From contig JACPEV010000009.1 in assembly GCA_016183325.1 (NCBI GenBank), forward strand, positions 1,303 through 65,302: DNA of 64,000 nucleotides. The letters run 5' to 3'. The notes under the pieces were generated by a model, which searched no databases, had not been told where the DNA came from, and saw nothing but the letters and a program-made list of their open reading frames with translations. The position numbers and the translations under genes are program-made. Shown piece by piece: positions 29,079-63,819 of the stretch (position 1 is the first letter of the stretch; every line of letters starts with the position of its first letter). The stretch comes from Candidatus Curtissbacteria bacterium. Lineage in GTDB: Bacteria; Patescibacteriota; Microgenomatia; Curtissbacterales; GWA2-41-24.

Positions 29079-29192
29079 GTAACTGTTCACCGTTACTGAC
29101 ACAACGCATATTGTTCGAGGCTGAAAGCCGAGAACTAAACTTCTCGCTCACGCTCGAAGAGTAATAACGTGTCAGCGATTGTGAACTCTTAC
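29079..29192 (+). repeat. 114-bp exact repeat, copy A (MITE-like; terminal inverted repeats gtaa-ctg-ttcac ... gtgaa-ctc-ttac)
   Basis: Identical base for base to 55393-55506; sits 10 nt upstream of dgkA. Confidence 0.85.
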
Positions 29193-32305: not shown

Positions 32306-32312
32306 CTTAAAT

Positions 32313-43307: not shown

Positions 43308-43374
43308 AAACAGCTTCTCGCCAATTTTGAAAAATTACCCATTTCTGGTAAAATATATGTTGCTTTTGGGAAGA

Positions 43375-43715
43375 AGAACGATCGCCCCGTACCATACGGT
43401 ACGGGGAGGAAAGTCCAGACAGCAGGAAGCAAAGGATCCCGCGTAAGCGGGGACTAGAAATAGCTGGTGTCTTGGCTCTTTACCCGCATGCGGAGCCAAG
43501 AACAGGTCTTGAGTTTACAAGACTTGAGAGCAACAGAGACGAGCGGGAGTGAAACGGGCAATCCTACTTGCTGCAACCCAGATTTGAACCGATCTAGCCA
43601 TAGGCTGGTCAGTCTTTGGCTAATGACCATGCTTCCGGGAGGTTCAGAGTAGGGGCATCCTGTTAAAAACCAGGACGAAGTGGCTAATTCGTCATTTCGA
43701 GATAGATGATCGTAA
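43375..43715 (+). ncRNA. rnpB: Probable RNase P RNA
   Basis: ccccgtacc-ata-cggtacgggg hairpin followed by GGAGGAAAGTCCAG (P4 5'-strand-like); ...GCAACAGAGAC...GTGAAACGGGC...; ~340 nt of hairpins with only a spurious 61-aa ORF. Confidence 0.5.
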
Positions 43716-43815
43716 AAACCAAGTCTGACTTGGTAAAACAGAATCTGGCTTACATCTTCCCAAAAGCATTTTTAAAGAATTTGACTAATTTTGTCAAAGG
43801 TGTAATCATATTTGT

Positions 43816-44016: not shown

Positions 44017-44272
44017 AACCTAATTTGACGGAATTGACACTTTAACCATAATCAAGTATATTAACTTCAGCTATACGTATATGAGTGGCCCAGAAGGCAG
44101 CAACCAAACCCAATTCGAAATTGGCCCAACTCCAGTTCTACCCCGAAAAATATCTTCGGTCCCAAGAGGATTCGTGTTTGTCAATACCTTTTTATCTCCT
44201 GATATGGAAACTCCACGTCCACCACCCGATGCTGTTGAAGCAATAGAAAAACGTTTAAGTTAACTCTTGCGC

Positions 44273-44959
44273 GTGGTAAAAATTCCGATTGCTATTATGA
44301 TTGGAGCCGGTTCAAAGTTGCCTGCTCTCATCAAAGCGGCCAAAAGCCCCCAAAGCAGATTTTATATTAGCTTAGTAGTCAGCCACAGGAGTTTTTCTCC
44401 TGGAATCAAATACGCTCTTTTCAAAAAGATTCCGGCAATCTATTTTAAACTTCCAGATTATAGAAAAAGATTGTTTAATGGCTCAAAAAAAGCCAGAGCC
44501 GATTATATGAAGCGCCTCGGCTGGTTTATCTCCCAGCGAGAATATTTTCCCAAATTACTCGTCTTTGCCGGTTGGGATTTAGTCATGGATAAAAATTTCT
44601 TTAGTTTTTTCAAAGCGAAATTCGGCAATGGCTATGCTGCAATCAATCTTCATCCCGCCCTCCTGCCGCAAGAAAATGAAGGCGCCAAGATTAAACTTCC
44701 AGACGGTTCTTTCACCCCGATAATCAAAGGCGAACAACAAGAAGTTTTAAAAACAGTCATTGCCAAAAAACTTACTTATTTTGGCCCAACCGTTCATTTC
44801 ATGGTTCCGGTACAGTTCGACACCGGCGAGGTTATAAAAAGGGCATTTATTAAAATCGCAAGTGGCCAATCCCCCGAATCTTTGCGCAAAAAACTGATGC
44901 CGCAAGAAGACAGAATTTTAACAGAATCGATAAACGAAGTCATATCTAAATATTTGTAA
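44273..44959 (+). CDS. purN: Phosphoribosylglycinamide formyltransferase-like (PurN-like, with insertion)
   Basis: IPIAIMIGAGSKLPALIKAA N-terminus; NLHPALLP; TVHFMVPVQFDTGEVI; start placed at GTG 44273 (uncertain). Confidence 0.65.
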   Translation: MVKIPIAIMIGAGSKLPALIKAAKSPQSRFYISLVVSHRSFSPGIKYALFKKIPAIYFKLPDYRKRLFNGSKKARADYMKRLGWFISQREYFPKLLVFAGWDLVMDKNFFSFFKAKFGNGYAAINLHPALLPQENEGAKIKLPDGSFTPIIKGEQQEVLKTVIAKKLTYFGPTVHFMVPVQFDTGEVIKRAFIKIASGQSPESLRKKLMPQEDRILTESINEVISKYL

Positions 44960-44969
44960 ATCATAAACT

Positions 44970-46289
44970 ATGAACACTAAAGCGACTGTTTTAATTGTAG
45001 ACGGAGGAGGACGCGGCTCAGTTCTTGTTTATAAATATGCAAGAAGTCCACATGTTGGCAAAATCATAGCAGTTCCCGGCAACGATCTTATGGTAGAACT
45101 TACCCCAAAACCCGTGCAGATTTTTAAGGATATCAAAACTACCGATTTAAAAGAAATAATAAGAATTTGTCAACAGCACCACGTAGATTTAATTGATATC
45201 GCCCAGGATGATGCAATCGCCCAAGGTCTTACTGATGTTTTAAAAAAAGAAAATTTTAAAGTGCTTGGGCCCACCCGAGCGGCTGGCCAAATCGAGTGGG
45301 ATAAAGCTTGGGCGCGAAATTTTATGGTAGATTTTAATATCCCCTCACCCAAATTTAAAGTTTGTTTCACAGAACAGGAAGGAATTGATTTTATAAAATC
45401 TCAAAAAGAAAGCCAGTGGTTTATTAAAGCATCAGGCTTAGTTGCTGGCAAAGGTGCCCTTTATGCCAGGAATAATCAAGAAGCCCAAGAAAATATCACC
45501 AAGATGAAAACTTTTGGCATAAAAGGCCAAACTTATTTGATAGAAAAATGCCTTTACGGAGAAGAATTCTCCTCATTTGCCTTAGTCGATGGCCAAGACT
45601 TCCAAATTTTAGGTCACGCACAAGATCACAAAACGGTTTTTAACAATAATCTGGGTCCAAATACTGGTGGCATGGGTTGCTCCTCACCACCAATGGCCAT
45701 AACTAATAAAATAGCAGAACAAATAAAAATTATTTTTAAAAAAACATTAAAAGGACTAGCACTATTAAAAAGGCCATATCGGGGAATTCTCTATTTGGGT
45801 GGCATTATAGATAAAAACGGCAAAGTTTATGTTATTGAATTTAATGCCAGGTGGGGGGATCCTGAAGCTCAAGTAGTTCTGCCTCAAATTAAAAACGATT
45901 TTTACGAAATTGCCAAAGCGACCATTGAAAAGAAATTTTCCAAAATAAAATTAAAAAGAGATAAACTTTATCGGATAGCTGTCACGGCCGCGGCATCGGG
46001 TTACCCAATTGACTCCAGTCAAGCGCAAAATAAGCAAATTTTTGGTTTAGAAAAAATTTTCAAAAATAAAGATATTCAGATTTTCGGCGCCGGGATAAGG
46101 AAAATCAAGAAAAAATATTATGTAGCGGGCGGACGCCTTTTAACCATAGTCGCCAAAGCGCCCAATGTTGCACTGGCACGTCAAAAAGCCTACAATGCTC
46201 TTTCTCTTATTTTTATTGAAAGCAATAACCTTCACTATAGAACAGACATTGGTTATCGTGATTTAGAAAGACTTTACGAGGGATCGTAA
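44970..46289 (+). CDS. purD: Phosphoribosylamine--glycine ligase
   Basis: MNTKATVLIVDGGGRGS...; ATP-grasp architecture. Confidence 0.85.
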   Translation: MNTKATVLIVDGGGRGSVLVYKYARSPHVGKIIAVPGNDLMVELTPKPVQIFKDIKTTDLKEIIRICQQHHVDLIDIAQDDAIAQGLTDVLKKENFKVLGPTRAAGQIEWDKAWARNFMVDFNIPSPKFKVCFTEQEGIDFIKSQKESQWFIKASGLVAGKGALYARNNQEAQENITKMKTFGIKGQTYLIEKCLYGEEFSSFALVDGQDFQILGHAQDHKTVFNNNLGPNTGGMGCSSPPMAITNKIAEQIKIIFKKTLKGLALLKRPYRGILYLGGIIDKNGKVYVIEFNARWGDPEAQVVLPQIKNDFYEIAKATIEKKFSKIKLKRDKLYRIAVTAAASGYPIDSSQAQNKQIFGLEKIFKNKDIQIFGAGIRKIKKKYYVAGGRLLTIVAKAPNVALARQKAYNALSLIFIESNNLHYRTDIGYRDLERLYEGS

Positions 46290-46292
46290 ATT

Positions 46293-49202
46293 ATGATTCA
46301 CCAAATAAGTATTACCGCAAAAAGCAAGAAAGATCCTCTAGGGCAGGATTTACTCGCCGAGATTAAAAGAACACTGGGGATTAACAATATTAAAAACATA
46401 AGAACAGCCAAAATTTACAGACTTCAAGGTGTAAGCTTAAAAAAAGCCCAAGAATTTACCCAAAAAGTTTTATTCGAGCCGATTGATCAAGTAATGTCTT
46501 TTGACAAACCATTATTCAATGATGCTGGTCAAAAAATTGAGGTCGCCTACAAACTTGGGGTTATGAATCCTGAAGTTGGATCGCTACTTAAGTCGGCAAT
46601 TGACCTTGGTATCAATCTGGAAGCGGCGGACGCTTCTCGTCAGTACGCTTTTTATGGAGGTCTGACAAAGGAACAACTTGCAGAGATTGCCGTCAGACTT
46701 TTAGTTAACAAAACTGTTGAGCAAATCATCGAAAAACCTCCGAAAAATCTTATTATCACTGGCAAGGTCCAAAAAACAGAAAAAATTCTGATCAGAAATA
46801 TGAACGATAGTCAACTAGTAAAGCTTTCAAAAGACAAGCTATTTCTCAACTTAGAAGAAATGAAAGTAATACAAAATTATTTTAAAAAAATAAAAAGGGA
46901 TCCTACCGATTGTGAAATTGAAGTTCTTGCCCAAACATGGAGCGAACATTGTGTGCATAAAACTTTCAAAGCCAAACTCATTGTCGATGGCAAAGTCAAA
47001 AAACCGTTAATTGAGAGGATTAAGGCAACTATCAAAAACAACCCCAAAATTGTAGTCTCCGCTTTTGTCGACAATGCCGGTGTCATCGATTTTTATGACG
47101 GTTTTGCCATAAACGGCAAAGTCGAAACTCACAATTCTCCATCAGCAATCGAACCTTATGGTGGGGCAATGACCGGTTCCGGAGGTGTTTTTCGCGACAT
47201 CCTTGGGACTGGGCAAGGAGCAAAAGTTGTCGCATCAACCGACATTTTTTGTTTTGCGCCTCCCAATACGTCTTCAAAATTAATTCCCCCGGGCTGTCTT
47301 CCTCCGGACTATCTTTTAAGAAAGGTTGTTGCCGGCGTTCGAGATTACGGGAATAGAGTTGGCATTCCCACCAACAACGGGTCAGTCCATTTTCATCAAG
47401 ATTTTCGTGCCAAGCCCACAGTTGCCGCAGGCGCTTACGGCATTGTTCCCAAAAAACAAGCAAAAAAACAATGGCCCAAAAAGGGTGATCTTATTTTGAC
47501 TATTGGAGGCCGAACTGGTCGTGATGGTATCCATGGCGCTACTTTTTCTTCAGGCGAAATGACCGACCGCACAATTTCAGTTTCCGGCTCGGCAGTTCAG
47601 ATCGGCAACGCTATTGAAGAAAAAAGAATGATCGATGCCATCCTGACACTTCGTCAAAATGGTTTAGTCAGAACATTAACCGACTGCGGCGCCGGCGGTT
47701 ACTCATCGGCAGTTGGCGAAATGGGCCAAAAAATTGGCGCCCGAGTTTATCTTGAAAAAGTTCTTCTCAAATATACTGGTCTTGCTCCTTGGGAAATATT
47801 TCTTTCCGAATCGCAAGAGCGCATGGTACTTTGTGTTTCGCCCCGTCAGATTAAAAAAGTTAAAGAAATTTGCCAACTTTACAACGTCGAAGTAACCGCA
47901 ATCGGCAAGTTTGACGGTTCAAAAAGGCTTAAGGTTCTTTATAAAGATCAAGTAGTTTGCGATCTTGCGATGAAATTTTTACATGAAGGTCTTCCTCAAA
48001 GAAAAATGATAGGAACGACCGCAAAAAAACAAATCAAAGAAAAATTACCGGCAAAAAATATCGACCTTGAAAATATCTGGCAAAAGATCATGTCTCATGG
48101 CAATGTTTGCTCAAAAGAGCCAATAGTAAGAATGTATGATCATACAGTCCAAGGCACAAGCTCCCTGCCACCTCTTTGCGGGGTCAATCAGGATGCTCCA
48201 AATGACGGAGCAGTTATTCGCCCTATTTTAAAAAAACCATATGGCCTGGTTATAACTCACGGATTGAATCCCTCCCTGAATAAAATCGATCCTTATAAAG
48301 GCAGTATTTGGGCGATACTTGAAGCGGTATCAAACTATGTTGCAGTCGGTGGCAATTTAAAGGACGCTGCCTTAATAGACAATTTTATCTGGTCATTTCC
48401 AGACGAAAAAAGTCTTGCCGATTTGGACAAATCGGTTGATGCTTGTATCAAAATGGCCAAAATTTTAAAAATGCCTTTCGTTTCCGGCAAAGACAGTCTT
48501 TCATCAACGTACAGATTTAGAGATGGCCGAATTTTAAAAATTCCACCTGTTCTTTTAATTTCCGTTTTTGGAAAAATTCCTGATGTCAACAAAACCGTCA
48601 GCTCTGACTTTAAGAAAATTGGATCTACAATAGTTTTAGTTGGCAAACCGGATATCAATAACCTTGGTGGCACAGTTTACTTTGATCTAACAGACTCAAC
48701 GAGTCCCAATGTTTCAAGTCCTGATCTTCAACCTACAACAAAAGTTCTTTCGACAATCACTTCAGTGATTCGAAACGGTGAAGTAATGTCTGTCCATGAT
48801 ATTTCTGAAGGAGGACTTGCAGGATCACTCGCCGAAATGTGCTTTGGGGGTGATTGTGGAGCTAAGATCGATTTAGCTAACATTAAAAATTATCAAAAAA
48901 TTCGCTATAGCAAAAAAATGGAAAATAGTGTCAATGTAACCGACACCCCCGGGGTGGGCAAAACAAGACCGGACTTTATTTTATTTAATGAAACCCCAGG
49001 AACCTTTTTGGTAGAAGTGGCAAATCCCCAACTTGCTCAAAAACTTTTTGCCAAAGTCCCTCACTATATTCTTGGACAGACCATAGCAGATCAATCAATT
49101 ATCGTCGCGCAGGGATCTAAAAAAATTGTCAGAATTGATGTCGGTAAACTTAAACAATCGTGGCAAAAGCCAATGAAAGAAATATTTCATTATGAAGCCT
49201 AA
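46293..49202 (+). CDS. purL: Phosphoribosylformylglycinamidine synthase, PurS-like N-terminal domain fused to PurL
   Basis: 969 aa; N-terminal ~80 aa PurS-like, then PurL AIR-synthase-related domains (VEXHNSPSAIEPYGGA, DCGAGG). Confidence 0.85.
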   Translation: MIHQISITAKSKKDPLGQDLLAEIKRTLGINNIKNIRTAKIYRLQGVSLKKAQEFTQKVLFEPIDQVMSFDKPLFNDAGQKIEVAYKLGVMNPEVGSLLKSAIDLGINLEAADASRQYAFYGGLTKEQLAEIAVRLLVNKTVEQIIEKPPKNLIITGKVQKTEKILIRNMNDSQLVKLSKDKLFLNLEEMKVIQNYFKKIKRDPTDCEIEVLAQTWSEHCVHKTFKAKLIVDGKVKKPLIERIKATIKNNPKIVVSAFVDNAGVIDFYDGFAINGKVETHNSPSAIEPYGGAMTGSGGVFRDILGTGQGAKVVASTDIFCFAPPNTSSKLIPPGCLPPDYLLRKVVAGVRDYGNRVGIPTNNGSVHFHQDFRAKPTVAAGAYGIVPKKQAKKQWPKKGDLILTIGGRTGRDGIHGATFSSGEMTDRTISVSGSAVQIGNAIEEKRMIDAILTLRQNGLVRTLTDCGAGGYSSAVGEMGQKIGARVYLEKVLLKYTGLAPWEIFLSESQERMVLCVSPRQIKKVKEICQLYNVEVTAIGKFDGSKRLKVLYKDQVVCDLAMKFLHEGLPQRKMIGTTAKKQIKEKLPAKNIDLENIWQKIMSHGNVCSKEPIVRMYDHTVQGTSSLPPLCGVNQDAPNDGAVIRPILKKPYGLVITHGLNPSLNKIDPYKGSIWAILEAVSNYVAVGGNLKDAALIDNFIWSFPDEKSLADLDKSVDACIKMAKILKMPFVSGKDSLSSTYRFRDGRILKIPPVLLISVFGKIPDVNKTVSSDFKKIGSTIVLVGKPDINNLGGTVYFDLTDSTSPNVSSPDLQPTTKVLSTITSVIRNGEVMSVHDISEGGLAGSLAEMCFGGDCGAKIDLANIKNYQKIRYSKKMENSVNVTDTPGVGKTRPDFILFNETPGTFLVEVANPQLAQKLFAKVPHYILGQTIADQSIIVAQGSKKIVRIDVGKLKQSWQKPMKEIFHYEA
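48945..48958. repeat. In-frame palindrome cacccccggggtgg inside purL
   Basis: Third member of the caccccgggggtg family (encodes DTPGVG). Confidence 0.5.
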
Positions 49203-50016
49203 AGTTTGTATTTTAAGAACCGACGGTACCAATTGCGATGAAGAGCTCTTTTATGCCTTTGAGAAATTTGGCGCCGCTCCCCAGTATGTCCACGTCAATC
49301 AGCTAAGAGCTAAAAGCAAAAAGCTAAAGGCATTCCAGATTCTGGCCCTTCCCGGCGGTTTTTCTTATGGAGATGATGTCGCCTCCGGCAAAATTCTGGC
49401 TGTTGAGTTGATTTCATACCTCAAAGATCAACTTCAGGAATTTATCAGCAAAAATGGACTTGTGATCGGCATTTGTAATGGTTTTCAAACACTCGTGCGA
49501 ACTGGCCTTTTGCCATTTGGCCATTTAGGCAAGATGGAGGCAACTCTTGCCCAAAACGAAAGCGGTCATTTTGAATGTCGCTGGATCAGATTAAAAATCG
49601 AAAAAAGCCGCTGCCCCTTTTTAAATCTCTATCTCAAACCGGGTTTGCCTACGTATTCCAAACCCGGTTTGGATAATGGTTTGGAAAATGGCGTCTTTGA
49701 ATTGGCCGTTAATCATGGTGAAGGTCGCTTTTTCGCCAACAATGAAACAATTGCAACAATGGAACAATCAAATCTCGTTGTGTTTCGCTACGTTGATGGA
49801 AAAGGTAAACCAACTGGGCATTATCCCGAGAATCCCAATGGTTCAATCAACGCTATCGCTGGAGTCTGTGATCCAACCGGTAGAATCTTAGGCTTGATGC
49901 CCCATCCCGAAAAATTCGTCGACATTACTCAATACCCAAACTGGCGCCGGGGAAAAGTGACCGAACCCCATGGAGCCTTTATCTTTAAACAACTGATAAG
50001 ATTTGCCACTGTCTGA
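49192..50016 (+). CDS. purQ: Phosphoribosylformylglycinamidine synthase, glutamine amidotransferase subunit
   Basis: MKPKVCILRTDGTNCDEE...; GIC catalytic cysteine; overlaps the purL stop. Confidence 0.85.
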   Translation: MKPKVCILRTDGTNCDEELFYAFEKFGAAPQYVHVNQLRAKSKKLKAFQILALPGGFSYGDDVASGKILAVELISYLKDQLQEFISKNGLVIGICNGFQTLVRTGLLPFGHLGKMEATLAQNESGHFECRWIRLKIEKSRCPFLNLYLKPGLPTYSKPGLDNGLENGVFELAVNHGEGRFFANNETIATMEQSNLVVFRYVDGKGKPTGHYPENPNGSINAIAGVCDPTGRILGLMPHPEKFVDITQYPNWRRGKVTEPHGAFIFKQLIRFATV

Positions 50017-50044
50017 TACTATGATTTAAATCATTAGAACAAAC

Positions 50045-51145
50045 ATGAATAAGAAAATCACTTATTCCCAAGTTGGCGATGATTACGACACCAAAGATCC
50101 CATCAAAAAAATGGCCCAATTTTTCGCCCGCCAAACCATTATTAAAGATAAATCAGGATTTGTAGAACTGTCCAGCACTCGTGGAGAGTCGGCATTCGTT
50201 TGGCAGCAAGATGGTGTTTTTATGGCTTCCGTTGTTGAAGGCCTTGGTACCAAAAATCTCGTTGCCGACGACATGCGAAAAATCACAGGTAAAACTTACT
50301 ACGATGTCATCGGTCATGATACCGTCGCCACCATCATCAATGATTTGATTACCGTCGGTGCCAAACCTCGCGTTATCCATGCTTATTGGGCAATTGAGGA
50401 TAACAGTTGGCTCCAAGATCACCAGCGTATGACGGATTTTATTACCGGTTGGCGAGATGCTTGCAAAATTTCAATGGCCACATGGGGAGGAGGAGAAACA
50501 CCAACATTAAAAGGGGTTATAGAAAAAGACACAGTGGATCTTGGGGGATCAGCTATTGGAGTAATAGAAGACAAAAAAAGATTGATTACAGATAAAAAAC
50601 TAAAAGCGGGGGATAGAATAGTATTTCTTAAAAGTAACGGTATCAATTGCAACGGCCTATCTCTTGCCCGCGCCGTTGCCAAAAAGTTTCCGAAAGGTTA
50701 CGCCACAAAAATGTCCGATGGTCAGGTGTACGGAGAGGCACTTCTTACCAAAACCAATATCTACGCCAAACTAATTCAAGATTTACTAAATGCCGGCATT
50801 GATATCCATTATATTTCCAACATCACAGGTCACGGACTTAGAAAAATTATGAGGGCAAGAAGCAATTTTACTTATGTAATCGAGAAACTTTTTGAGCCCC
50901 AAGAAGTTTTCCTTTTTACCCAAAAACATGCCAACTTAACGGACGACGAAATATATCAAACACTCAACATGGGTCAGGATTATGCAATATTTCTTTCCCC
51001 AAAAGATATTAAAAAAGCACAGGAAATTATCGCTAAAAATAAATCCCAAAGTCTCGACGCAGGTTATGTTAAAGTCGGTCCCCGCCAAGTCAAAATCCTT
51101 CAAAAAAACATCACCTACAAATCAGAAACCTTAGATTTACGATAA
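50045..51145 (+). CDS. purM: Phosphoribosylformylglycinamidine cyclo-ligase (AIR synthase)-like
   Basis: AIR synthase-related N- and C-domains. Confidence 0.75.
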   Translation: MNKKITYSQVGDDYDTKDPIKKMAQFFARQTIIKDKSGFVELSSTRGESAFVWQQDGVFMASVVEGLGTKNLVADDMRKITGKTYYDVIGHDTVATIINDLITVGAKPRVIHAYWAIEDNSWLQDHQRMTDFITGWRDACKISMATWGGGETPTLKGVIEKDTVDLGGSAIGVIEDKKRLITDKKLKAGDRIVFLKSNGINCNGLSLARAVAKKFPKGYATKMSDGQVYGEALLTKTNIYAKLIQDLLNAGIDIHYISNITGHGLRKIMRARSNFTYVIEKLFEPQEVFLFTQKHANLTDDEIYQTLNMGQDYAIFLSPKDIKKAQEIIAKNKSQSLDAGYVKVGPRQVKILQKNITYKSETLDLR

Positions 51146-51564: not shown

Positions 51565-52140
51565 ATGAAAGTAGATCCAAAACGAAAAGAAGTTTTAACA
51601 ATGTTAGGTCTTGGTGTATTTCTTTCCGTAAGCATTATCTTCCCGGGACTACCGTTAATAACTAAAAAAATTCTCGACATCGCGCAAGAAGAAGAAATAA
51701 GGAAAAAGCAAAAAGATTGGGATAAATTCAACTTATGGCGCCTTCGGCAGTTAATAAAAAGGATGCAGGATTCAAAATATATTGAAATCAAAGAAGAAAA
51801 TGGAATTCCAATTATCAAAATAACACAAAAAGGTAAAAACAAGCTCTTGAGTTATGATTTGGAAAAGTTAAAGCTCAATGAAACTAAATGGGATGGTAGA
51901 TGGAGACTGATTATATATGACGTTCAAAAATCAAAAAGGGCAAACAGTGAAACATTCAGAAGAGCATTGTTGAGGTTGAACTTACTAAAATTACAAAAAA
52001 GCGTCTACTTGACACCATTTAAATGCGAGGACGAAATTGAATATCTCAGATTACTTTTTGATATAGGTAAAGAAGTACAAATTTTGACTGTAGGAAGCTT
52101 GGAAAACGAATCTGCCTACAGACGCTACTTCGGAATCTAA
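51565..52140 (+). CDS. PaaX-family-like transcriptional regulator (wHTH + PaaX_C-like domain)
   Basis: WDGRWRLIIYDVQKSKRANSETFRRALLRLNLLKLQKSVYLTPF resembles the PaaX C-domain (WdGrW.lv.yslPe..R..R..lrr.L.w.GFg.l..gvWisP); N-terminal KEVLTMLGLGVF... and YIEIKEENGIPIIKITQKGKNKL resemble a winged helix. Confidence 0.5.
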   Translation: MKVDPKRKEVLTMLGLGVFLSVSIIFPGLPLITKKILDIAQEEEIRKKQKDWDKFNLWRLRQLIKRMQDSKYIEIKEENGIPIIKITQKGKNKLLSYDLEKLKLNETKWDGRWRLIIYDVQKSKRANSETFRRALLRLNLLKLQKSVYLTPFKCEDEIEYLRLLFDIGKEVQILTVGSLENESAYRRYFGI

Positions 52141-55392: not shown

Positions 55393-55506
55393 GTAACTGT
55401 TCACCGTTACTGACACAACGCATATTGTTCGAGGCTGAAAGCCGAGAACTAAACTTCTCGCTCACGCTCGAAGAGTAATAACGTGTCAGCGATTGTGAAC
55501 TCTTAC
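55393..55506 (+). repeat. 114-bp exact repeat, copy B
   Basis: Identical to 29079-29192; 51 nt upstream of purP-1. Confidence 0.85.
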
Positions 55507-55557: not shown

Positions 55558-56571
55558 ATGGCGGGCCGTTTAAGCTACAAAATAGCAACATTAGGTTCGC
55601 ACTCCGCGCTCCAAATCTTAAAAGGCGCCAAGGATGAGGGGTTCCAAACTCTCCTTGTCGCGACTCCAGGCCGTCTTTCTCTCTATAAACGCTTCAAATT
55701 TATAGACAAAATTATTCAGATCTCCTCTTATTCAGATTTCCCAAAAATCGAAAAACAACTCATTGCCGAAAACGCGGTCATTGTTCCACACGGCTCATTT
55801 GTTGCATATTTAGGCATCGATGAAAATAAAAAAATAAATGTTCCCTATTTTGGTAATAAAGCTGTTTTGGATTGGGAATCGGACAGACTTAAACAACGCT
55901 ATTGGTTAGAAAGTGCCAATGTCCCCGTTCCCCGAAGATTTACTCACCCCAGCGATATAGATGTTCCTGTCTTGGTTAAGTCTTACGGCGCTGCCGGTGG
56001 CCATGGTTATTTTTTCGCCAAAAATAAAGGAGAGTTTAAACAAAAAATCAAAAGTTTTAAAGCCAAAAATTACATCATTCAGGAATATGTCATTGGTGTT
56101 TCAGCTTACATCCATTACTTTTACTCTCCACTAACACAAAAACTTGAAATTCTCTCAATCGATAGGCGTTATGAAACCAATGTCGACTCTCTCGGCAGGA
56201 TTCCTTCTCACAATCAGCAAGGGCTTGGCATTGAACCTTCTTTTGTAGTTGTCGGCAATAGCCCGCTGGTTCTGCGCGAATCACTTTTGGTTGATGCTTT
56301 TGAAATGGGTGAGCGTACGATTGCTGCCTCCAAAAAATTAATGAAAGGTGGACTTTGGGGACCGTTTTGTCTTGAGGCCATAATTACCCCAGCTCAAGAA
56401 TTTTTCGTCATCGAAATTTCCTGCCGCATTGTTGCCGGCACAAACTTATTCATCAACGGTTCACCATACTCCTCACTATACTGGGACAAAGAAGTTTCCA
56501 CCGGTCGAAGAATCGCTATGGAAATTAAAGATGCGATAAAGAAACGGTTACTGAGTAAAATTTTAAATTAG
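55558..56571 (+). CDS. purP: Archaeal-type FAICAR synthetase (PurP, formate-dependent ATP-grasp), paralog 1
   Basis: IATLGSHSALQILKGAKDEGF...VPHGSFVAYLG...FGN...HYFYSP...IDRRYETN...GPFCLE close to characterised archaeal PurP. Confidence 0.8.
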   Translation: MAGRLSYKIATLGSHSALQILKGAKDEGFQTLLVATPGRLSLYKRFKFIDKIIQISSYSDFPKIEKQLIAENAVIVPHGSFVAYLGIDENKKINVPYFGNKAVLDWESDRLKQRYWLESANVPVPRRFTHPSDIDVPVLVKSYGAAGGHGYFFAKNKGEFKQKIKSFKAKNYIIQEYVIGVSAYIHYFYSPLTQKLEILSIDRRYETNVDSLGRIPSHNQQGLGIEPSFVVVGNSPLVLRESLLVDAFEMGERTIAASKKLMKGGLWGPFCLEAIITPAQEFFVIEISCRIVAGTNLFINGSPYSSLYWDKEVSTGRRIAMEIKDAIKKRLLSKILN

Positions 56572-56646
56572 CGGTAAGTTCTCACTGGCGTTCGAACAAT
56601 AACCTGCTAGTTATTCTTCGAAAGAGAGAAGTTACACAACAAATCT

Positions 56647-57927
56647 ATGGCCAGTAAAAGTTTGAAAAATTGGCAGGGCATAGCTTGTGTCATCGGTTTA
56701 GATTTTGGTGATTCAGGTAAAGGTCGGCTTATTGACGATCTTGCCCAAAATGCCCATATTGTTGCCAGATTTAACGGTGGGTCAAACGCCGGCCATACCG
56801 TAAGAAATCAATTTGGCGCGTTCGCCCTGCACATGATTCCTTCAGGAATCTTTAACCAGAAAGCGACTTGCATCATTGGCAGGGGAGTCGCAGTCGATCT
56901 TGAATCTCTCATTGACGATGAATTTCAACAGTTGAAAAAAGTGGGCGTTTCCTGGAAAAATTTAATCATTGACGATCAGGCAACTTTAACTATGCCCTGG
57001 CATAAGCTAAAGGATGGAATTCGCGAAAATTACCGAAAAACAAAAATCGGAACGGTTGGTAAGGGCATTGGACCAACTTATGCCGATAGAGTCGAAAGAT
57101 CAGGATTGCGAGTTTACGATTTGATTGCCAAAGATTTCAGAGAAAAACTGGCAGATGAGTTATCGTTTCAAAATAAATTTTTTAACTTAAAATTAAAATT
57201 TGAAAATATATTTAGTCAGTACGCAAAATATGCCACCATCATCAAATCCCATGTAGCAACTACTATTCCCGTCATTAAGAAAGCTAAAAAAGATGGCAAA
57301 AATATTTTATTTGAAGGAGCCCAAGGGTACTTTTTAGACATTGATTCGGGTACTTATCCGTATGTTACATCATCTAGTACCGGGGTTTTAGGCATTTGGC
57401 GATCTTTTGATATTCACCCCTTCGACATCAATCAAGTCGTAGGAATTACCAAAGCTTATTTGACAAGAGTAGGAGCAGGCCCGATGCCCACAAAAATCAA
57501 CTCTCACGAGAAAGAAACCATCATCGAAAAAGGCACGGAATTTGGAACAACCTCCGGCAGGGTAAGGGATCCGGGCTGGTTGGATTTGGTATTAATAAAG
57601 CATGCAGTCGCCGCCAATAAAGTAAACAGTCTTGCCCTAACGAAACTAGATATTTTATCCGGCTTTAAGAATATAAAAATTTGCATCGGCTACAAAATTG
57701 CAAGTCAAGTTGCCAATTATGTATCAGGCGATGCAACTTCACTTGAAAAGTGCCAGCCCCAATATGAAGTGCTTCCAGGATGGCGCCAAGATATTTCAAA
57801 AGCTAGAAATTTTAAAGACCTTCCAAAAAATGCCAAGAACTATATAAAATTTATTGAAAAATTTACGCAAGTACCGGTCAATATTATTGGAGTCGGGCCA
57901 GAAAGGGAGCAAGCAATTTATGTCTAA
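56647..57927 (+). CDS. purA: Adenylosuccinate synthetase
   Basis: GLDFGDSGKGRLIDDL...NGGSNAGHTV... PurA. Confidence 0.9.
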   Translation: MASKSLKNWQGIACVIGLDFGDSGKGRLIDDLAQNAHIVARFNGGSNAGHTVRNQFGAFALHMIPSGIFNQKATCIIGRGVAVDLESLIDDEFQQLKKVGVSWKNLIIDDQATLTMPWHKLKDGIRENYRKTKIGTVGKGIGPTYADRVERSGLRVYDLIAKDFREKLADELSFQNKFFNLKLKFENIFSQYAKYATIIKSHVATTIPVIKKAKKDGKNILFEGAQGYFLDIDSGTYPYVTSSSTGVLGIWRSFDIHPFDINQVVGITKAYLTRVGAGPMPTKINSHEKETIIEKGTEFGTTSGRVRDPGWLDLVLIKHAVAANKVNSLALTKLDILSGFKNIKICIGYKIASQVANYVSGDATSLEKCQPQYEVLPGWRQDISKARNFKDLPKNAKNYIKFIEKFTQVPVNIIGVGPEREQAIYV

Positions 57928-59194
57928 AATGTACAAAACGCAAAATTATTCTTCGAGCGAATCCGCCAACTGGCGGAGAAGTCGAGAAACTACCTCTGAA
58001 AATATAATAAATTTTAAGGTAAGTTCTCGACCTGCCCCGTACCGTATGGTAACGGGGCAAGCTCGAACAATAACGGTAGCTGTTTTGGGGAGCCACTCTG
58101 CTCTAGATGTCTGCCGAGGTGCCAAGGACGAGGGTTTAAAGACTTTAGTCATCGCAGAATATGGGCGCGACAAAACTTACGCAGAGTATTTTAAAACTAG
58201 AAGTCCTTCGACAAGCTCAGGACGATCTTCGATCGGTTGCGTTGATGAAGTTTTGTATGTTGATAAATTTAAAGATATTCTTTTGCCAAAAATTCAGAAG
58301 ATCTTAAAATCAAAAAATAGCATTTTCATCCCCCATCGTTCCTTTGAAGTCTATATCAACGATTATGACGCCATCGAAAACGACTTTAAAATTCCCATAT
58401 TTGGAAATCGTAAACTTCTGAGAATAGAAGAAAGGTCCGAAAAACCAAATCAATATGACCTTTTGAAACAAACCGGTATTAAGTACCCAAAAACATTTAA
58501 AGATCCAAAAGATATTGATACTATTGTTATTGTTAAAGTAAACGAAAAAGAAAGAAAGTACGAAAGAGCCTTTTTCCTTGCAAGCACTCGCAAGCAGTAT
58601 CAGTCCGAGTCAGAAAGGTTAATTAAAGCAGGAGTTATTACTAAAAAAGATCTGAATGCCGCAATAATTGAAGAATTTATTTTAGGAGTCCAAGTTAATT
58701 TCAACTTCTTCTATTCTCCAATTAGTCGTCGACTCGAATTAGTTGGAACAGATACCAGAAGACAAACTGATATAGAAGGAATTTTAAGATTGCCTGTTGA
58801 CAGACAAAAGGAAATTCTTGAAATGAAGACTAGAGCTGGAAATAAAAAAATCAATCCTCAGTGGGAAGAAGCGGGGCACATTGCTGTCACTACTTTGGAA
58901 TCCTTACTTGAGCCTGCTTTCGAAATCGGAGAAAAGTTTATCAAAGCGGCCCGACAGATGGTTCCACCCGGCGTCATCGGTCCATTCAGTCTGCAATCAG
59001 TCATCACTCCCGGCCCGCCTAAAAAGGAAATTGTTGTTTTTGATGTTTCTCCAAGAGTGCCCGGCTCCCCAGGTATATCAAGCACTCCCTACAGCGCTTA
59101 TTTGTGGGGTCAATCCGTCAGCATGGGTCGTCGAGTTGCCATGGAAATTAAAAATGCAATCTTTAGAAAAAAACTGAATAAAATATTGACTTAA
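57920..59194 (+). CDS. PurP-family ATP-grasp protein, paralog 2
   Basis: VAVLGSHSALDVCRGAKDEGL...IPHRSFEVYI...FGNR...NFFYSP...TDTRRQTD...GPFSLQ; start chosen at ATG 57920 (RBS aagggag), overlapping the purA stop. Confidence 0.75.
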   Translation: MSKMYKTQNYSSSESANWRRSRETTSENIINFKVSSRPAPYRMVTGQARTITVAVLGSHSALDVCRGAKDEGLKTLVIAEYGRDKTYAEYFKTRSPSTSSGRSSIGCVDEVLYVDKFKDILLPKIQKILKSKNSIFIPHRSFEVYINDYDAIENDFKIPIFGNRKLLRIEERSEKPNQYDLLKQTGIKYPKTFKDPKDIDTIVIVKVNEKERKYERAFFLASTRKQYQSESERLIKAGVITKKDLNAAIIEEFILGVQVNFNFFYSPISRRLELVGTDTRRQTDIEGILRLPVDRQKEILEMKTRAGNKKINPQWEEAGHIAVTTLESLLEPAFEIGEKFIKAARQMVPPGVIGPFSLQSVITPGPPKKEIVVFDVSPRVPGSPGISSTPYSAYLWGQSVSMGRRVAMEIKNAIFRKKLNKILT

Positions 59195-59247: not shown

Positions 59248-60642
59248 ATGAATCAAAAGATCAATTTTGGAACTTACCAATCACCATTTTCCTGGCGTTA
59301 TGGTTCAGATGAGATGCGATCACTATTCTCCGAGGTAAATCGCCGCAAAACTTGGCGCAAAGTCTGGGTAGCTCTCGCCCGCGCCCAATCAAAATTTGGT
59401 CTAGTTACAGGCCGCCAACTCCAAGATCTTATCAAAAACCAGAACAATATAGACATTCAAAAGGCACACGAGATAGAAGCAAGAATCAAGCACGATCTAA
59501 TGGCAGAAATTAAAACCTATGCCGCTCAATCTGGTGCAGCCGGAGCCAAGATTCATCTCGGCGCCACCTCTGCCGATATTGAAGATAATGCCGATGTTAT
59601 TAATTTCCGAATATCGCTGGCAATTATAGAAAAAAAATTAAAAGATTTACTTCGCGAATTTTCCCAAAAAATTGACGAAAATAAAAACCTTGTTTGCATG
59701 GCCTATACTCATTTGCAGCCAGCCGAACCGACCACTCTGGGATACCGTTTTTGTCTTTATGCTCAAGATCTGCTTTTAGATCTGAAATTATTGTCGTATA
59801 TCAGAAGTCAAATGAAAGGTAAAGGCATCAAAGGCGCGGTTGGAACATCTGCAAGTTACGTTTCTCTACTGGGTCAAAAAGCCAAAGACATGGAAAGAAT
59901 GGTCCTCAAAGAATTGCAAATAGAAGCTTTTGATGTTACCGGCCAGGTTTACCCAAGAAAAATCGACTACCTAATTTTAACGGCTCTTGCCAGCATTGCA
60001 CAAAGTCTTTATAAATTTGCTTTTGACCTTCGAATCATGCAATCCCCGGGTTTTGGCGAGCTCCAAGAACCATTTGGGGCTAGTCAAGTCGGTTCTTCTG
60101 CCATGCCGCATAAAAGAAATCCCCAAACTTCAGAGCGAATTTGTTCAATTAGCCGTTTCGTCAATTCATTAACTCATGTTGCTTGGGAGAACGCCGCCAA
60201 CTCGCTACTTGAAAGGACCTTAGATGATTCAGCCAGTCGCAGAATTATTATTCCACAGGCATTTTTGGCAACTGATGAAATTCTGGCTCATATGATTTTA
60301 ATTGTTAGAGATCTAAAAATTAACAAAAGAAACGTTCAAAGAAACTTGGAAATCTATGGACCTTTCGCTGGCAGCGAAAATATTATGATGCAATCAGTTA
60401 AAAACGGAGCCGATCGGCAAGAAATCCACGAAGCAATTCGACAAGTTTCCATGAAAGCTTGGGAAAAAGTAGGAGAAGGACACGCTAACCCCTTGGTAGA
60501 CTTGCTTAAACGCAATAAAATGATAACTAAATTTGTTAATCCCGACCAAATTGCCCAACTTATTAATCCTGCCAAACATATTGGATTTGCTAAAGATAAG
60601 TGCCTCTCATTTCTTAAGGAACTAAATAAACAATTACTATGA
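59248..60642 (+). CDS. purB: Adenylosuccinate lyase
   Basis: Fumarate lyase signature GSSAMPHKRNP. Confidence 0.9.
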   Translation: MNQKINFGTYQSPFSWRYGSDEMRSLFSEVNRRKTWRKVWVALARAQSKFGLVTGRQLQDLIKNQNNIDIQKAHEIEARIKHDLMAEIKTYAAQSGAAGAKIHLGATSADIEDNADVINFRISLAIIEKKLKDLLREFSQKIDENKNLVCMAYTHLQPAEPTTLGYRFCLYAQDLLLDLKLLSYIRSQMKGKGIKGAVGTSASYVSLLGQKAKDMERMVLKELQIEAFDVTGQVYPRKIDYLILTALASIAQSLYKFAFDLRIMQSPGFGELQEPFGASQVGSSAMPHKRNPQTSERICSISRFVNSLTHVAWENAANSLLERTLDDSASRRIIIPQAFLATDEILAHMILIVRDLKINKRNVQRNLEIYGPFAGSENIMMQSVKNGADRQEIHEAIRQVSMKAWEKVGEGHANPLVDLLKRNKMITKFVNPDQIAQLINPAKHIGFAKDKCLSFLKELNKQLL

Positions 60643-61187
60643 AAAAACTTGTCGGTATTTTAATGGGTTCTGATACAGATCTAGAGGTCGTCTCCGAAGC
60701 AGCTAAAATTTTGGATGAGTTACAGATATCGTACGAAATATCCGTGCTCTCAACCCACCGAGCCCCAGAAGAAACGGCAAAGTATGCTAAACTTGCCAAG
60801 GGAAAAGGTCTTAAAGTATTAATTGCAGCAGCAGGCGGAGCAGCCGCGCTACCCGGATCTGTAGCTTCTCAAACTACTCTTCCTGTAATCGGTATCCCCA
60901 TAAAAGCCAAATCTCTGGATGGTATTGATTCCCTTCTTTCTATTTCTCAAATGCCCCCCGGCGTCCCAGTTGCTACAGTTGGTGTAAATGCGGCTAAAAA
61001 TGCCGGCATCTTAGCTGCCCAGATTTTGGCACTTTCCGATACTAAAATCGCCGGAAAAGTCGAAGATTATAAAGAAAAGTTGAGACACGAAGTACTTTCG
61101 AAAAATTCCAAGATTCAAAAACTCGGCTGGGATAAATATCTGAAAGATAAAACTGCAACCACTGAAGGTACTGAAAATAGAACATGA
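60639..61187 (+). CDS. purE: AIR carboxylase / N5-CAIR mutase catalytic subunit
   Basis: GILMGSDTDL...AAGGAAALPG... PurE. Confidence 0.85.
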   Translation: MKKLVGILMGSDTDLEVVSEAAKILDELQISYEISVLSTHRAPEETAKYAKLAKGKGLKVLIAAAGGAAALPGSVASQTTLPVIGIPIKAKSLDGIDSLLSISQMPPGVPVATVGVNAAKNAGILAAQILALSDTKIAGKVEDYKEKLRHEVLSKNSKIQKLGWDKYLKDKTATTEGTENRT

Positions 61188-61239
61188 GATCACTGAGGCT
61201 AATAAAACATTCAGTGTTTCCAGTGGTTGCTTAAGTTCA

Positions 61240-62229
61240 GTGTTATCAGTGGTTACAATGATAGACAAAAAAACTATTTTAGAAAATATTCCCGAAGCAA
61301 TAGACAAAATCGCTTATCCAAAACTCGGCAGGCGAAACAGCGGAAAAGTCCGCGATTGGTACATTAGAAATAACCTTCGCATCCTGATTACCACAGATCG
61401 CGTTTCTGCTTTCGATAAAGTTGTAGGAACAGTTCCTTTCCGTGGCGCTGTCTTAAATAAGCTTTCCCAATTTTGGTTTGAAAAAACCAGAGATATTGTT
61501 GCCAATCATATGATTGGTATAACCGACCCGAATGTCATGCTCGTTTCCGAATGCCAAGCATTGCCAGTGGAAGTAATTGTTAGGGGACATATCACGGGTG
61601 TTACGCAAACCTCAATCTGGAAAATGTATTCGGAAGGTCAAAGAATTATCTATGGCATTAAATTTCCAGAAGGTCTTGTTAAAAATCAAAAGCTAAAAAA
61701 ACCTGTTATTACTCCAACAACAAGAGCGACTGGTCCTGGCGGACATGATGAACCAATTACCGCAGCCGAAATCATCAAGAAAAAACTTGTACCTCCAAAT
61801 ATTTGGAGACAGATCGAAAAAGTTGCCCGCGATCTTTTCGAAAGAGGAACCAAGATTTGTCAAAAAGGCGGCTTTATTTTAGCGGATACTAAGTATGAAT
61901 TTGGTCTCTCCAAAAATGGCAAACTTACTTTGATAGACGAAATTCATACTCCTGATAGCAGCCGGCTTTGGCTGAAAAAAACCTACAGAGAAAGATTCAA
62001 AAAAGGCCAAGAAGTTGAAAACTACGATAAGGAAATTATGCGCATTTGGTTTAAAGAACGAGGATATAGTGGAAAGGGTAAAGCGCCGGAAATACCCGAC
62101 AGTCTCAAGGTCCAAATTGCCACCCGCTATATGGAGGTTTATGAAAAGATAACTGGAGAAAAATTTATAATTGATTTGAAAGTTCCACCAAAAGAAAGAA
62201 TTTTAGAAAATCTTTCGATGCTCATATAA
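61240..62229 (+). CDS. purC: SAICAR synthetase
   Basis: ...GKVRDWY...ILITTDRVSAFD... long-form SAICAR synthase. Confidence 0.8.
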   Translation: MLSVVTMIDKKTILENIPEAIDKIAYPKLGRRNSGKVRDWYIRNNLRILITTDRVSAFDKVVGTVPFRGAVLNKLSQFWFEKTRDIVANHMIGITDPNVMLVSECQALPVEVIVRGHITGVTQTSIWKMYSEGQRIIYGIKFPEGLVKNQKLKKPVITPTTRATGPGGHDEPITAAEIIKKKLVPPNIWRQIEKVARDLFERGTKICQKGGFILADTKYEFGLSKNGKLTLIDEIHTPDSSRLWLKKTYRERFKKGQEVENYDKEIMRIWFKERGYSGKGKAPEIPDSLKVQIATRYMEVYEKITGEKFIIDLKVPPKERILENLSMLI

Positions 62230-63819
62230 ATGATTATAGTCGTTAACTTTGGTGGTCAATTTGCTCACCTGATCGCAAGAAGAATCAGAAATTTGGGTGT
62301 CAAAAGTGAATTAGTTCCACCTGATATTTCTCCAAAAAATCTTATTAAACTTTCTCCGCAGGCAGTTATTTTTTCTGGCAGTCCTTCTTCTGTTTACGAA
62401 AATAACGCTCCCAAAATAAGTCCCCAAATTTACAATTTAAATTTACCAATTCTAGGAATCTGTTACGGTCAGCAATTAATAGCCCATCAACTTGGAGGCA
62501 AAGTTTCATCACATGATGCTAAACAATTCGGAAAAGAAATATTAAAAATAAAAAAGTCATCGCTCTTTTCAGGTCTTTCCTCACCTCAAACAGTTTGGTT
62601 TTCCCATGGAGATCAGGTGGATAAACTATCACCAGGTTTTGAAACAATTGCCTCTACAACAAATGCCAAAATTGCCGCCATGCAAAATTCAGCAAAAAAT
62701 ATTTACGGCATCCAATTTCATGCCGAAGTTGTCCATACTCCAAATGGCCAAAAAATCCTTGAAAATTTTCTTTTTAAAATAGCCAAGGCCAAAAAAGATT
62801 GGAAGCTAGACTTTGTCAAAGAAAATTTAATCAAAAATCTCAAAAAAGAAATATCCAATCAAAAAGTCTTAATGGCGATTTCTGGAGGAGTTGATTCTCT
62901 TGTTGCGGCATCGATTTTAACAGAAGCGATTGGTAAAAATTTACTGCTTGTATTTATCGATACAGGACTATTAAGAAAATACGATATCCCTGATCTGAAG
63001 GCTACAGTAAAAACACAAAAATTTAATAATTTAAAAATTGTAGACGCGCAAGAAAGGTTTCTTAGTGCATTAAAGGGAATTACCGATCCAGAAAAAAAAC
63101 GCCAGGTTATCGCCAGGATCTATTTTGAAGTTCTCACAGAAGAAGCTAAAAAGTTAGGGAATCTTAATTTTCTTGCCCAAGGCACCATCTATCCCGATAG
63201 AATCGAATCGGGAAAGCCCTCAAAACATGCCGATAAAATCAAAAGCCATCACAACGTCACATTGCCGCAAGGTTTAAAACTAAAAATAATAGAACCACTC
63301 GCCGAATTTTATAAAGATGAAGTTAGAAAAATCGGCAAACTTTTAAATATCCCAAGCGGATTTCTAGATCGCCATCCCTTTCCCGGCCCTGGTCTGGCAA
63401 TTAGAATTTTGGGAGAAGTAACAGAGGAGAGATTGAAAATATTAAGGGAAGCAGATGAGATTTTTATCAGCGAATTAAAAAGATATGAACAAGGTGCATA
63501 TAATAAGGAAGTTTCACTTCGGTCAACTTCCTTGCGGTCCTCCCGAGTCGGACTCGGTGCGGGCCTAAAGGTAGGACAAGCGTTTGCCGCTCTTTTCCCG
63601 GTAAAGTCAGTGGGAGTAATGGGCGATAGCAGAACTTATTCTTATATAATTTCTCTAAGAGCCGTCGACACAGTCGATTTCATGACCGCAGACTGGTCTA
63701 AGTTACCAAACGAATTGTTAGAAAAAGTATCTACGAGAATCGTCAATGAAGTTCGAGGAGTCAACCGCGTCGTTTATGACATCACCCAAAAACCCCCGGC
63801 AACCATAGAGTATGAGTAA
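62230..63819 (+). CDS. guaA: GMP synthase (glutamine-hydrolysing) with ~21-aa in-frame palindromic insertion
   Basis: GATase ILGICYGQQ; PP-loop SGGVDS; C-terminal ...VGVMGDSRTYSYIISLRAV...PPATIEYE; insertion EVSLRSTSLRSSRVGLGAGLK. Confidence 0.9.
   Translation: MIIVVNFGGQFAHLIARRIRNLGVKSELVPPDISPKNLIKLSPQAVIFSGSPSSVYENNAPKISPQIYNLNLPILGICYGQQLIAHQLGGKVSSHDAKQFGKEILKIKKSSLFSGLSSPQTVWFSHGDQVDKLSPGFETIASTTNAKIAAMQNSAKNIYGIQFHAEVVHTPNGQKILENFLFKIAKAKKDWKLDFVKENLIKNLKKEISNQKVLMAISGGVDSLVAASILTEAIGKNLLLVFIDTGLLRKYDIPDLKATVKTQKFNNLKIVDAQERFLSALKGITDPEKKRQVIARIYFEVLTEEAKKLGNLNFLAQGTIYPDRIESGKPSKHADKIKSHHNVTLPQGLKLKIIEPLAEFYKDEVRKIGKLLNIPSGFLDRHPFPGPGLAIRILGEVTEERLKILREADEIFISELKRYEQGAYNKEVSLRSTSLRSSRVGLGAGLKVGQAFAALFPVKSVGVMGDSRTYSYIISLRAVDTVDFMTADWSKLPNELLEKVSTRIVNEVRGVNRVVYDITQKPPATIEYE
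63505..63572. repeat. GC-rich palindromic in-frame insertion in guaA (core ccgagtcggactcgg)
   Basis: The well-characterised E. coli GuaA has LYDKVSQAF contiguous at this point, as recalled from memory; here 63 nt of palindromic GC-rich sequence intervene. Confidence 0.55.

Follow-up and report, generated by a model that had tools for sequence, protein, structure and literature searches.

A bacterial PurP gene pair of cluster Ib and cluster II type flanks purA in the purine operon of Candidatus Curtissbacteria

The locus and the identity of its two PurP genes

We examined a pair of PurP-family ATP-grasp genes in a 64,000-nt stretch of contig JACPEV010000009.1 from a Candidatus Curtissbacteria bacterium (assembly GCA_016183325.1); this full 64-kb stretch is hereafter referred to as the window, and all positions are numbered within it. 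The first gene, PurP-A (55558..56571, + strand, 337 aa), and the second, PurP-B (57920..59194, + strand, alternative start 58046), lie on either side of purA, the adenylosuccinate synthase gene (56647..57927, + strand), which was recognized by Pfam Adenylsucc_synt at 506 bits and by NCBIfam NF002223 at 477 bits, over the cut-off of the latter. The DNA is bacterial: among its other genes are a ribosomal-protein operon and those for SecY, for an RpoA that has the bacterial alpha-CTD, for RecA, and for RNase Y. Proteins that match exactly or nearly so bear the annotation Candidatus Curtissbacteria, which belongs to the Microgenomates of the candidate phyla radiation. An initial annotation had described two divergent archaeal-type PurP paralogs flanking purA, and the flanking arrangement stands; together they form the cluster Ib plus cluster II pair already known from archaea (Zhang’s PurP II and III), of which this is a bacterial member.

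Membership of both open reading frames (ORFs) in the archaeal-type PurP family was borne out by matches to Pfam DUF1246 and DUF1297, in that order, with E-values from 1e-40 to 1e-70 (150 and 235 bits for PurP-A, 138 and 212 bits for PurP-B, against cut-offs of about 24-25). The best scores to NCBIfam PurP models were 399 for PurP-A and 283 for PurP-B, neither of which reaches the equivalog cut-offs of 556-603. The PurP motifs quoted in the initial annotation (LGSHSAL, FGNR, FYSP, RR.TD, and GPF.LQ) are present, with small differences in wording: PurP-A reads FGNK, DRRYETN, and GPFCLE, and PurP-B reads FGNR, TRRQTD, and GPFSLQ. The deep divergence ascribed to the two copies was likewise recovered, as the proteins are 32% identical over their full length and fall into two deep clades of a neighbor-joining (NJ) tree built from 50%-identity representatives. 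In this tree, PurP-A lies with the archaeal proteins PF1517 of Pyrococcus furiosus and PurP of Methanocaldococcus jannaschii (Mj), and PurP-B lies in the other deep clade; neither is in the clade of MJ0136 (cluster Ia), PurP-A grouping with PF1517. The best PDB match of PurP-A is also PF1517 (2r84, E 9.9e-109), ahead of MjPurP (E 1.3e-93), while the best solved match of PurP-B is MjPurP by default, because cluster II has no solved structure.

Brown et al. (2011), using Mj numbering, characterized cluster I by Asn258 and a (K/R)GG(K/R)G P-loop, and cluster II by His258 and a basic loop that is two residues longer and has lost the glycines. PurP-A has Asn at Mj position 258 and a glycine-rich loop (GAAGGHGYF) that, at 12 residues (KSYGAAGGHGYF), is of cluster I length, with Ala and His at the two K/R positions; PurP-B has His at position 258 and a basic, 14-residue loop (KVNEKERKYERAFF; in motif form NEKERKYERAFF) that is two residues longer and from which the glycines are gone. 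The same states were found throughout the related proteins, with Asn258, the GG P-loop, and the 12-residue loop in 75/75 A-type proteins (49 of which have Ala at position 161), and His258 and a 14-residue Arg-rich loop in 79/79 B-type proteins. Residues H27, S94, S266, R314, and K156 are present in both PurP-A and PurP-B and are near-invariant among the 75 A-type and 79 B-type proteins; His27 and Arg314 are formyl contacts, the serines contact the phosphate of 5-aminoimidazole-4-carboxamide ribonucleotide (AICAR), and Lys156 is the ATP lysine. We therefore assign the product of 55558-56571 to cluster Ib (PurP II) and that of 57920-59194 to cluster II (PurP III).

Distribution, pairing, and co-evolution

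A genome scan of one genome per species, queried with a 9-sequence alignment, returned 594 confirmed loci; we analyzed the best 80 of them, with flanks viewed to ±10 kb (related loci are labeled L001 and so forth). The hosts of these 80 loci span the Microgenomates (Curtiss-, Davies-, Woese-, and Levyibacteria), Peribacteria, Gracilibacteria, Parcubacteria, Dependentiae, the Anaerolineae, Ardenticatenales, and Caldilineae of the Chloroflexota, and, among archaea, DPANN, Methanosarcinales, and others. In 77/80 loci both PurP types are near neighbors on a single strand. The second copy, which had been regarded as a paralog of unexplained role, is the cluster II half of a known pair and not an orphan. 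Two of the three remaining loci are cut by contig ends, and one is without an A-type gene within about 5 kb. The two genes are directly adjacent in 58 pairs, many of them with 4- or 8-nt stop/start overlaps, and are separated by purA and/or purH alone in 14 more. The A-purA-B order of the window recurs in L001-L010, L013, L088, and L089. In the candidate phyla radiation (CPR), Chloroflexota, and Dependentiae the pair is located in pur operons.

The pairwise-distance matrices of the A-type and B-type proteins are correlated (r = 0.87), a value attained by 0/999 Mantel permutations. This agreement and the pairing in 77/80 loci show that the two genes are passed on together, by descent and by transfer, as one intact unit. 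In the B tree, Microgenomates fall beside Chloroflexota, and DPANN archaea enclose Peribacteria and Gracilibacteria; these placements imply several inter-domain transfers. A published survey stated that PurP is found in archaea only (PMC6486802), which no longer holds because the pair is present in many bacterial lineages; we found no report of PurP in CPR or Chloroflexi in the literature.

Retention of the B-type gene in 79/80 loci across two domains of life argues that it is under selection and that its product is probably ligand-binding. These observations count against an explanation in which PurP-A is the sole catalyst and PurP-B is a pseudoenzyme, serving as a structural or regulatory partner or kept by linkage. 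Such a role would be in keeping with the disappearance from PurP-B of the glycine-rich ATP-grasp P-loop and of N258, E230, T319, and N320, all of which are invariant in A-type proteins and in the active Mj enzyme. However, B-type proteins are 65-78% identical across Microgenomates, with many invariant columns, and they keep Lys156, Arg314, His27, and Glu199, with an invariant Asp replacing Glu310; we accordingly consider a non-catalytic PurP-B improbable.

Several database labels encountered among the related loci deserve mention. Many TPA (third-party annotation) metagenome-assembled genomes (MAGs) titled ‘uncultured Gammaproteobacteria’ (L005, L008, L013-L016, L018, and others) contain pur operons of the Microgenomates type, with PurP proteins that nest inside Curtiss- and Daviesbacteria. 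These titles look like placeholders or an erroneous taxonomy. The label of L078 is Desulfobacteria; this locus clusters with Methanosarcinales, and its gene order is the archaeal B-A one. Unusually long pur ORFs were also seen in L041 (2382-6611, a 1410-aa PurL-like ORF) and L044 (14122-16182, a 687-aa PurM-like ORF), and may be extra fusions or longest-ORF artefacts.

purH beside the pair and its loss in Curtissbacteria

The absence of purH from the cluster, as originally reported, was upheld by tblastn with a CPR PurH query, which found no match in the 64-kb window; PurF, PurT, Prs, FolD, and GuaB were likewise without a tblastn match there. Full-length purH, with MGS and AICARFT_IMPCHas domains, is nonetheless the commonest extra gene in the related loci, standing beside the pair or between its members in 26/80. 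The arrangement is A-B-purH-purB in Daviesbacteria, A-purH-purA-B in L015, L044, and L081, and A-purH-B in L041 and L082. The presence of PurP thus does not by itself imply a late purine pathway devoid of purH; for this locus an archaeal-like late pathway had been suggested. The PurH proteins of pair-containing loci keep the catalytic residues of both domains. A decayed transformylase domain in these CPR proteins was considered and dismissed, as K66, Y104, D125, K137, KH..PCG, SN, and FFPF are all kept.

Upstream of its pair, L081 has the same synteny as the window (RNase Y, miaA, and an AI-2E transporter), yet it carries purH between the A-type gene and purA. No purH was found within ±10 kb of the Curtissbacteria-type operon, that is, in the window and in the loci listed above as having the A-purA-B order. 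Because the syntenic L081 has the gene in this slot and Curtissbacteria-type operons do not, we conclude that purH was lost, in the Curtissbacteria lineage, from its place between PurP-A and purA. Lack of purH is a specific trait of the Curtissbacteria-type operon. On the 677-kb and 527-kb contigs that bear the A-purA-B operon there was no member of the 120 best CPR-type PurH matches, and it is plausible that purH is absent from the whole Curtissbacteria genome. No active-site changes of note were tied to purH loss in either PurP.

The loss of purH is most pertinent to the main rival of a co-operating pair, in which the labor is divided: PurP-A alone would be the formate-dependent synthetase of FAICAR (5-formamidoimidazole-4-carboxamide ribonucleotide), and PurP-B would be the missing inosine monophosphate (IMP) cyclohydrolase or an ATP-assisted FAICAR cyclase. 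The pair alone would then make IMP from AICAR, which would explain why Curtissbacteria-type loci could drop purH and keep the rest of the pathway, and the two long contigs described above are in line with this. PurP-B keeps the His27 and Arg314 formyl contacts and the ribotide-phosphate contacts, its carboxamide-contacting Asn258 is changed to an invariant His, and charged changes lie nearby (G93R, Y229R, E230Q, and I255E). Crenarchaeota and Pyrococci also possess the pair and no known IMP cyclohydrolase, and a cyclohydrolase role of this kind was raised by Brown et al. (2011). Set against this, the pair and a full-length PurH occur together in about a third of the loci (the 26/80 given above), Archaeoglobus has both the pair and a stand-alone, experimentally active PurH2 that would render a second cyclohydrolase redundant, PF1517 alone is inactive as a FAICAR synthetase, and purH was lost without active-site substitutions in either PurP protein. 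On balance we judge such a partition of the two steps unlikely, and we are equally doubtful that the Curtissbacteria pair by itself converts AICAR to IMP with one partner as the IMP cyclohydrolase, for which the cluster II protein with its His258 would be the most plausible choice. Thermal, non-enzymatic cyclization would presumably provide no escape in Curtissbacteria of cold groundwater. If the cluster II partner were the cyclohydrolase, it would fill an activity that has been missing from the Crenarchaeota and Pyrococcus pathways for two decades.

The N-terminus of PurP-B and a palindromic repeat family

PurP-B had been credited with an extra N-terminal region of ~75 aa, which proved to be smaller and of a different nature. 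The stop codon of purA is overlapped by the PurP-B ATG at 57920 (ATGTCTAA), which is preceded by an AAGGGAG Shine-Dalgarno sequence, as it is in L001, L004-L007, and L009; in the Curtissbacteria relatives purA ends in ATT TAT GTC TAA, with the PurP-B ATG embedded in the same manner and a conserved Shine-Dalgarno sequence (AAAGGGGAG). From this start, 61 residues precede GSHSAL in the window’s PurP-B, versus 9-39 in relatives and 9-12 in the closest of them, and the extra ~42 aa relative to orthologues are unconserved in 13 homologues. They derive from E3 (57945..58074, + strand), a structured repeat element of 130 nt that follows the conserved start codon, is in frame and free of stops, and is present in no relative. 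E3 has inverted termini (ATTATTCTTCGA and TCGAACAATAAC) and a predicted RNA fold energy of -59.7 kcal/mol. Because the element is in frame, has inverted termini and a strong fold, and occurs in no relative, the extension is a lineage-specific repeat-element insertion and not a domain. The NCBI start for PurP-B, at 58046, gives a protein of 382 aa and bypasses the element. The Ser/Gly-rich insert that had also been described is indeed present; it is a loop of variable length that only a part of the Microgenomates orthologues possess.

E3 belongs to a small family of palindromic repeats with strong predicted structure, found at 29107-29168, 55421-55482, 56573-56621, and 57945-58074. E2 (56573..56621, + strand), a short copy in the spacer between PurP-A and purA, shares the motif GGTAAGTTCTC...TCGAACAATAAC with E3 (2 matches versus 0 expected), and its spot is the slot that holds purH in L015, L044, and L081. 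E1 (55421..55482), a related palindromic repeat of 62 nt upstream of PurP-A, is identical by blastn at 62/62 positions to the second copy at 29107-29168 and has a fold energy of -20 kcal/mol. The related loci from other species yielded no copy of the family. An origin of the intergenic repeats as riboswitches for purines or for 5-aminoimidazole-4-carboxamide ribonucleoside triphosphate (ZTP) was also entertained and rejected, there being no Rfam family at gathering thresholds in the window and the repeats being dispersed palindromes.

The remainder of the purine gene cluster and its surroundings

The purine genes are arranged on the + strand in two blocks with ~4.4 kb of unrelated genes in between. 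The upstream block (44267..51145, + strand), identified by Pfam and NCBIfam matches and by a PurS domain match, comprises in order a divergent purN-like gene (44267-44959; 66 bits against the TIGR00639 cut-off of 150), purD (44970-46289), a purS-purL fusion (46293-49202), purQ as a separate GATase_5 gene (49192-50016), and purM (50045-51145). The downstream block runs PurP-A, purA, PurP-B, purB, purE, purC, guaA, and its part beyond PurP-B (59248..63819, + strand) was assigned from Pfam and NCBIfam matches over their cut-offs to purB (59248-60642), purE (60639-61187), purC (61240-62229), and guaA (62230-63819). The PurS-like domain that had been noticed at the N-terminus of PurL was verified: residues 1-185 match Pfam PurS in two stretches with 28.8 bits (cut-off 22.2) and are followed by the linker of the formylglycinamide ribonucleotide amidotransferase (FGAR-AT) and the AIRS and AIRS_C domains, with purQ separate. 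PurS-PurL fusions of this type have been recorded for archaea (PMC3261824).

The composition of the cluster is relevant to one further role for PurP-B, the acylation of another ribotide, as an analogue of either PurK (ATP, bicarbonate, and aminoimidazole ribonucleotide, AIR) or PurT (ATP, formate, and glycinamide ribonucleotide, GAR). The chemistry is analogous, in that the acyl-phosphate of an ATP-grasp enzyme attacks an aminoimidazole ribotide at its 5-amino group, the carboxamide-contacting residue of PurP-B is altered, and the cluster contains purE, with purK in neither the window nor the 80 loci. No anticorrelation was seen, however, as purT or purN share operons with the B-type gene, PurK accompanies the pair in most Crenarchaeota, and the window has a PurN-like gene of its own. 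These phyletic patterns led us to reject this role, which we hold to be very improbable.

Several features of these genes were noted in passing. The occurrence of purE (60639-61187, + strand) without purK, none being seen in the window or in the pur operons of the 80 related loci, resembles the pattern of the PurK-less archaea discussed in Brown et al. (2011). The purN-like gene (44267-44959, + strand) scores just 52 bits on Pfam Formyl_trans_N; its N..H..D motif, read from the translation, is kept, and a long insert lies between the HPALLP motif and the region of the catalytic Asp. Some relatives have purT or a purF-purN fusion in its place. A bacterial class A RNase P RNA (43366-43767, + strand) fills the stretch without ORFs that separates purN from the AI-2E transporter gene; it matched the full-length model at 78.4 bits (E 7.7e-24) and was overlooked by the default Rfam scan because this score is below the Rfam gathering score of 100. 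Between purM and PurP-A, a 191-aa ORF (51565-52140, + strand) is a borderline match to Cas2 (25.0 bits on TIGR01573, whose cut-off is 24.5) and weakly matches the PaaX regulator, and no CRISPR array was noticed nearby. Further upstream, three ORFs of ~600-640 aa without a Pfam match (34150-36078, + strand; 37455-39251, - strand; 39294-41201, + strand) adjoin PMT/YfhO-type glycosyltransferase genes at 30968-34010, and two of the three weakly match the Chlor_Arch_YYY domain.

A proposed co-operating formylation pair

PurP-A and PurP-B are the bacterial orthologues of the archaeal cluster Ib and cluster II pair, and we favor, with moderate confidence, the explanation that they co-operate in the formate- and ATP-dependent formylation of AICAR. 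The two proteins would most likely work together, probably as a hetero-oligomer, in a folate-independent N-formylation of AICAR to FAICAR that uses formate and ATP and would proceed through a formyl-phosphate intermediate. This explanation draws on the near-obligate pairing of the genes, the signs of translational coupling together with co-evolution, and a complementary retention of residues of the active homomeric Mj enzyme, of which PurP-B keeps E199, Q297, G224, and G317, and PurP-A keeps N258, G93, the P-loop glycines, E230, E310, T319, and N320.

In archaea the cluster Ib and II pair always co-occurs, and FAICAR synthetase activity is established for cluster Ia alone, in MJ0136 of M. jannaschii (PMC3261824, PMC6486802). 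The attribution of the AICAR to FAICAR step to PurP in the initial annotation is accordingly sound for cluster Ia, and since activity is established for that cluster only, we infer it for the cluster Ib and II proteins of the window. PF1517 (Ib) and PF0421 (II) of P. furiosus are each inactive alone in vitro, PF1517 binds ATP and AICAR though inactive, and a heterohexamer has been proposed (PMC3261824, PMC6486802); joint action of the two proteins fits both the inactivity of each alone and this proposal.

The IMP produced by way of the pair would feed purA and guaA, both of which are in the same operon. Most CPR relatives would have an intact, folate-dependent PurH in parallel to this route, and in Curtissbacteria, after the loss of purH, the pair is left as the operon’s sole candidate for the penultimate step. 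We likewise infer the route by which FAICAR would be cyclized to IMP in the Curtissbacteria organism.

A number of points weigh against co-operative formylation. To our knowledge, enzymatic activity has never been shown for any cluster Ib or II protein, and two consecutive, non-interacting enzymes would also give adjacency and co-evolution. A search for A-B fusion proteins in the related loci found none, returning just long-ORF artefacts in GC-rich loci. Because an apparently intact PurH with all catalytic motifs is encoded in the same operon in 26/80 loci, the pair must be at least partly redundant there or have another role. Folate-type one-carbon chemistry may also be available to the Curtissbacteria organism, as the window encodes a PurN-like formyltransferase.

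Demonstration of the pair in Microgenomates, Peribacteria, Gracilibacteria, Dependentiae, and Anaerolineae-type Chloroflexota widens its taxonomic range to bacteria, and its near-universal pairing and co-evolution argue, more strongly than any earlier comparative evidence, for a mutual need of the two proteins. Such a mutual need, if true, would explain why each is inactive alone in vitro. Nature offers a contrast between operons that have purH (Daviesbacteria, L015, and L081) and operons that lack it (Curtissbacteria); it is open to experiment and bears on both the role of the pair and the source of IMP cyclohydrolase in pair-only organisms.

Comparison with known systems

PurP-A resembles PF1517 of P. 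furiosus (PDB 2r84-2r87) in its domain architecture, Asn258, P-loop glycines, 12-residue loop, and NJ clade, and both are always partnered by a cluster II gene. It differs from archaeal cluster Ib proteins in its CPR host, in having Ala and His in place of the basic residues of (K/R)GG(K/R)G, and in the position of purA between it and its partner. PurP-B shares with archaeal cluster II proteins (PF0421) His258, the longer, basic, glycine-less loop, and obligate co-occurrence with cluster Ib, and differs from them in its bacterial host, the in-frame repeat element after its start codon, and its variable Ser-rich loop.

Relative to MJ0136 (cluster Ia, PDB 2r7k), both window proteins have the same fold family and the same formyl, phosphate, and ATP-lysine contacts. 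MJ0136, in contrast, is a single-gene homohexamer and the only characterized FAICAR synthetase, and the window proteins are outside its clade and below the equivalog cut-offs, each with part of its residues. The bifunctional PurH (AICAR transformylase and IMP cyclohydrolase) covers the same pathway steps and adjoins the pair in sister CPR lineages, but its fold is unrelated, it is folate-dependent, and it is missing from the window and from Curtissbacteria-type operons, where the cluster Ib and II pair stands without it.

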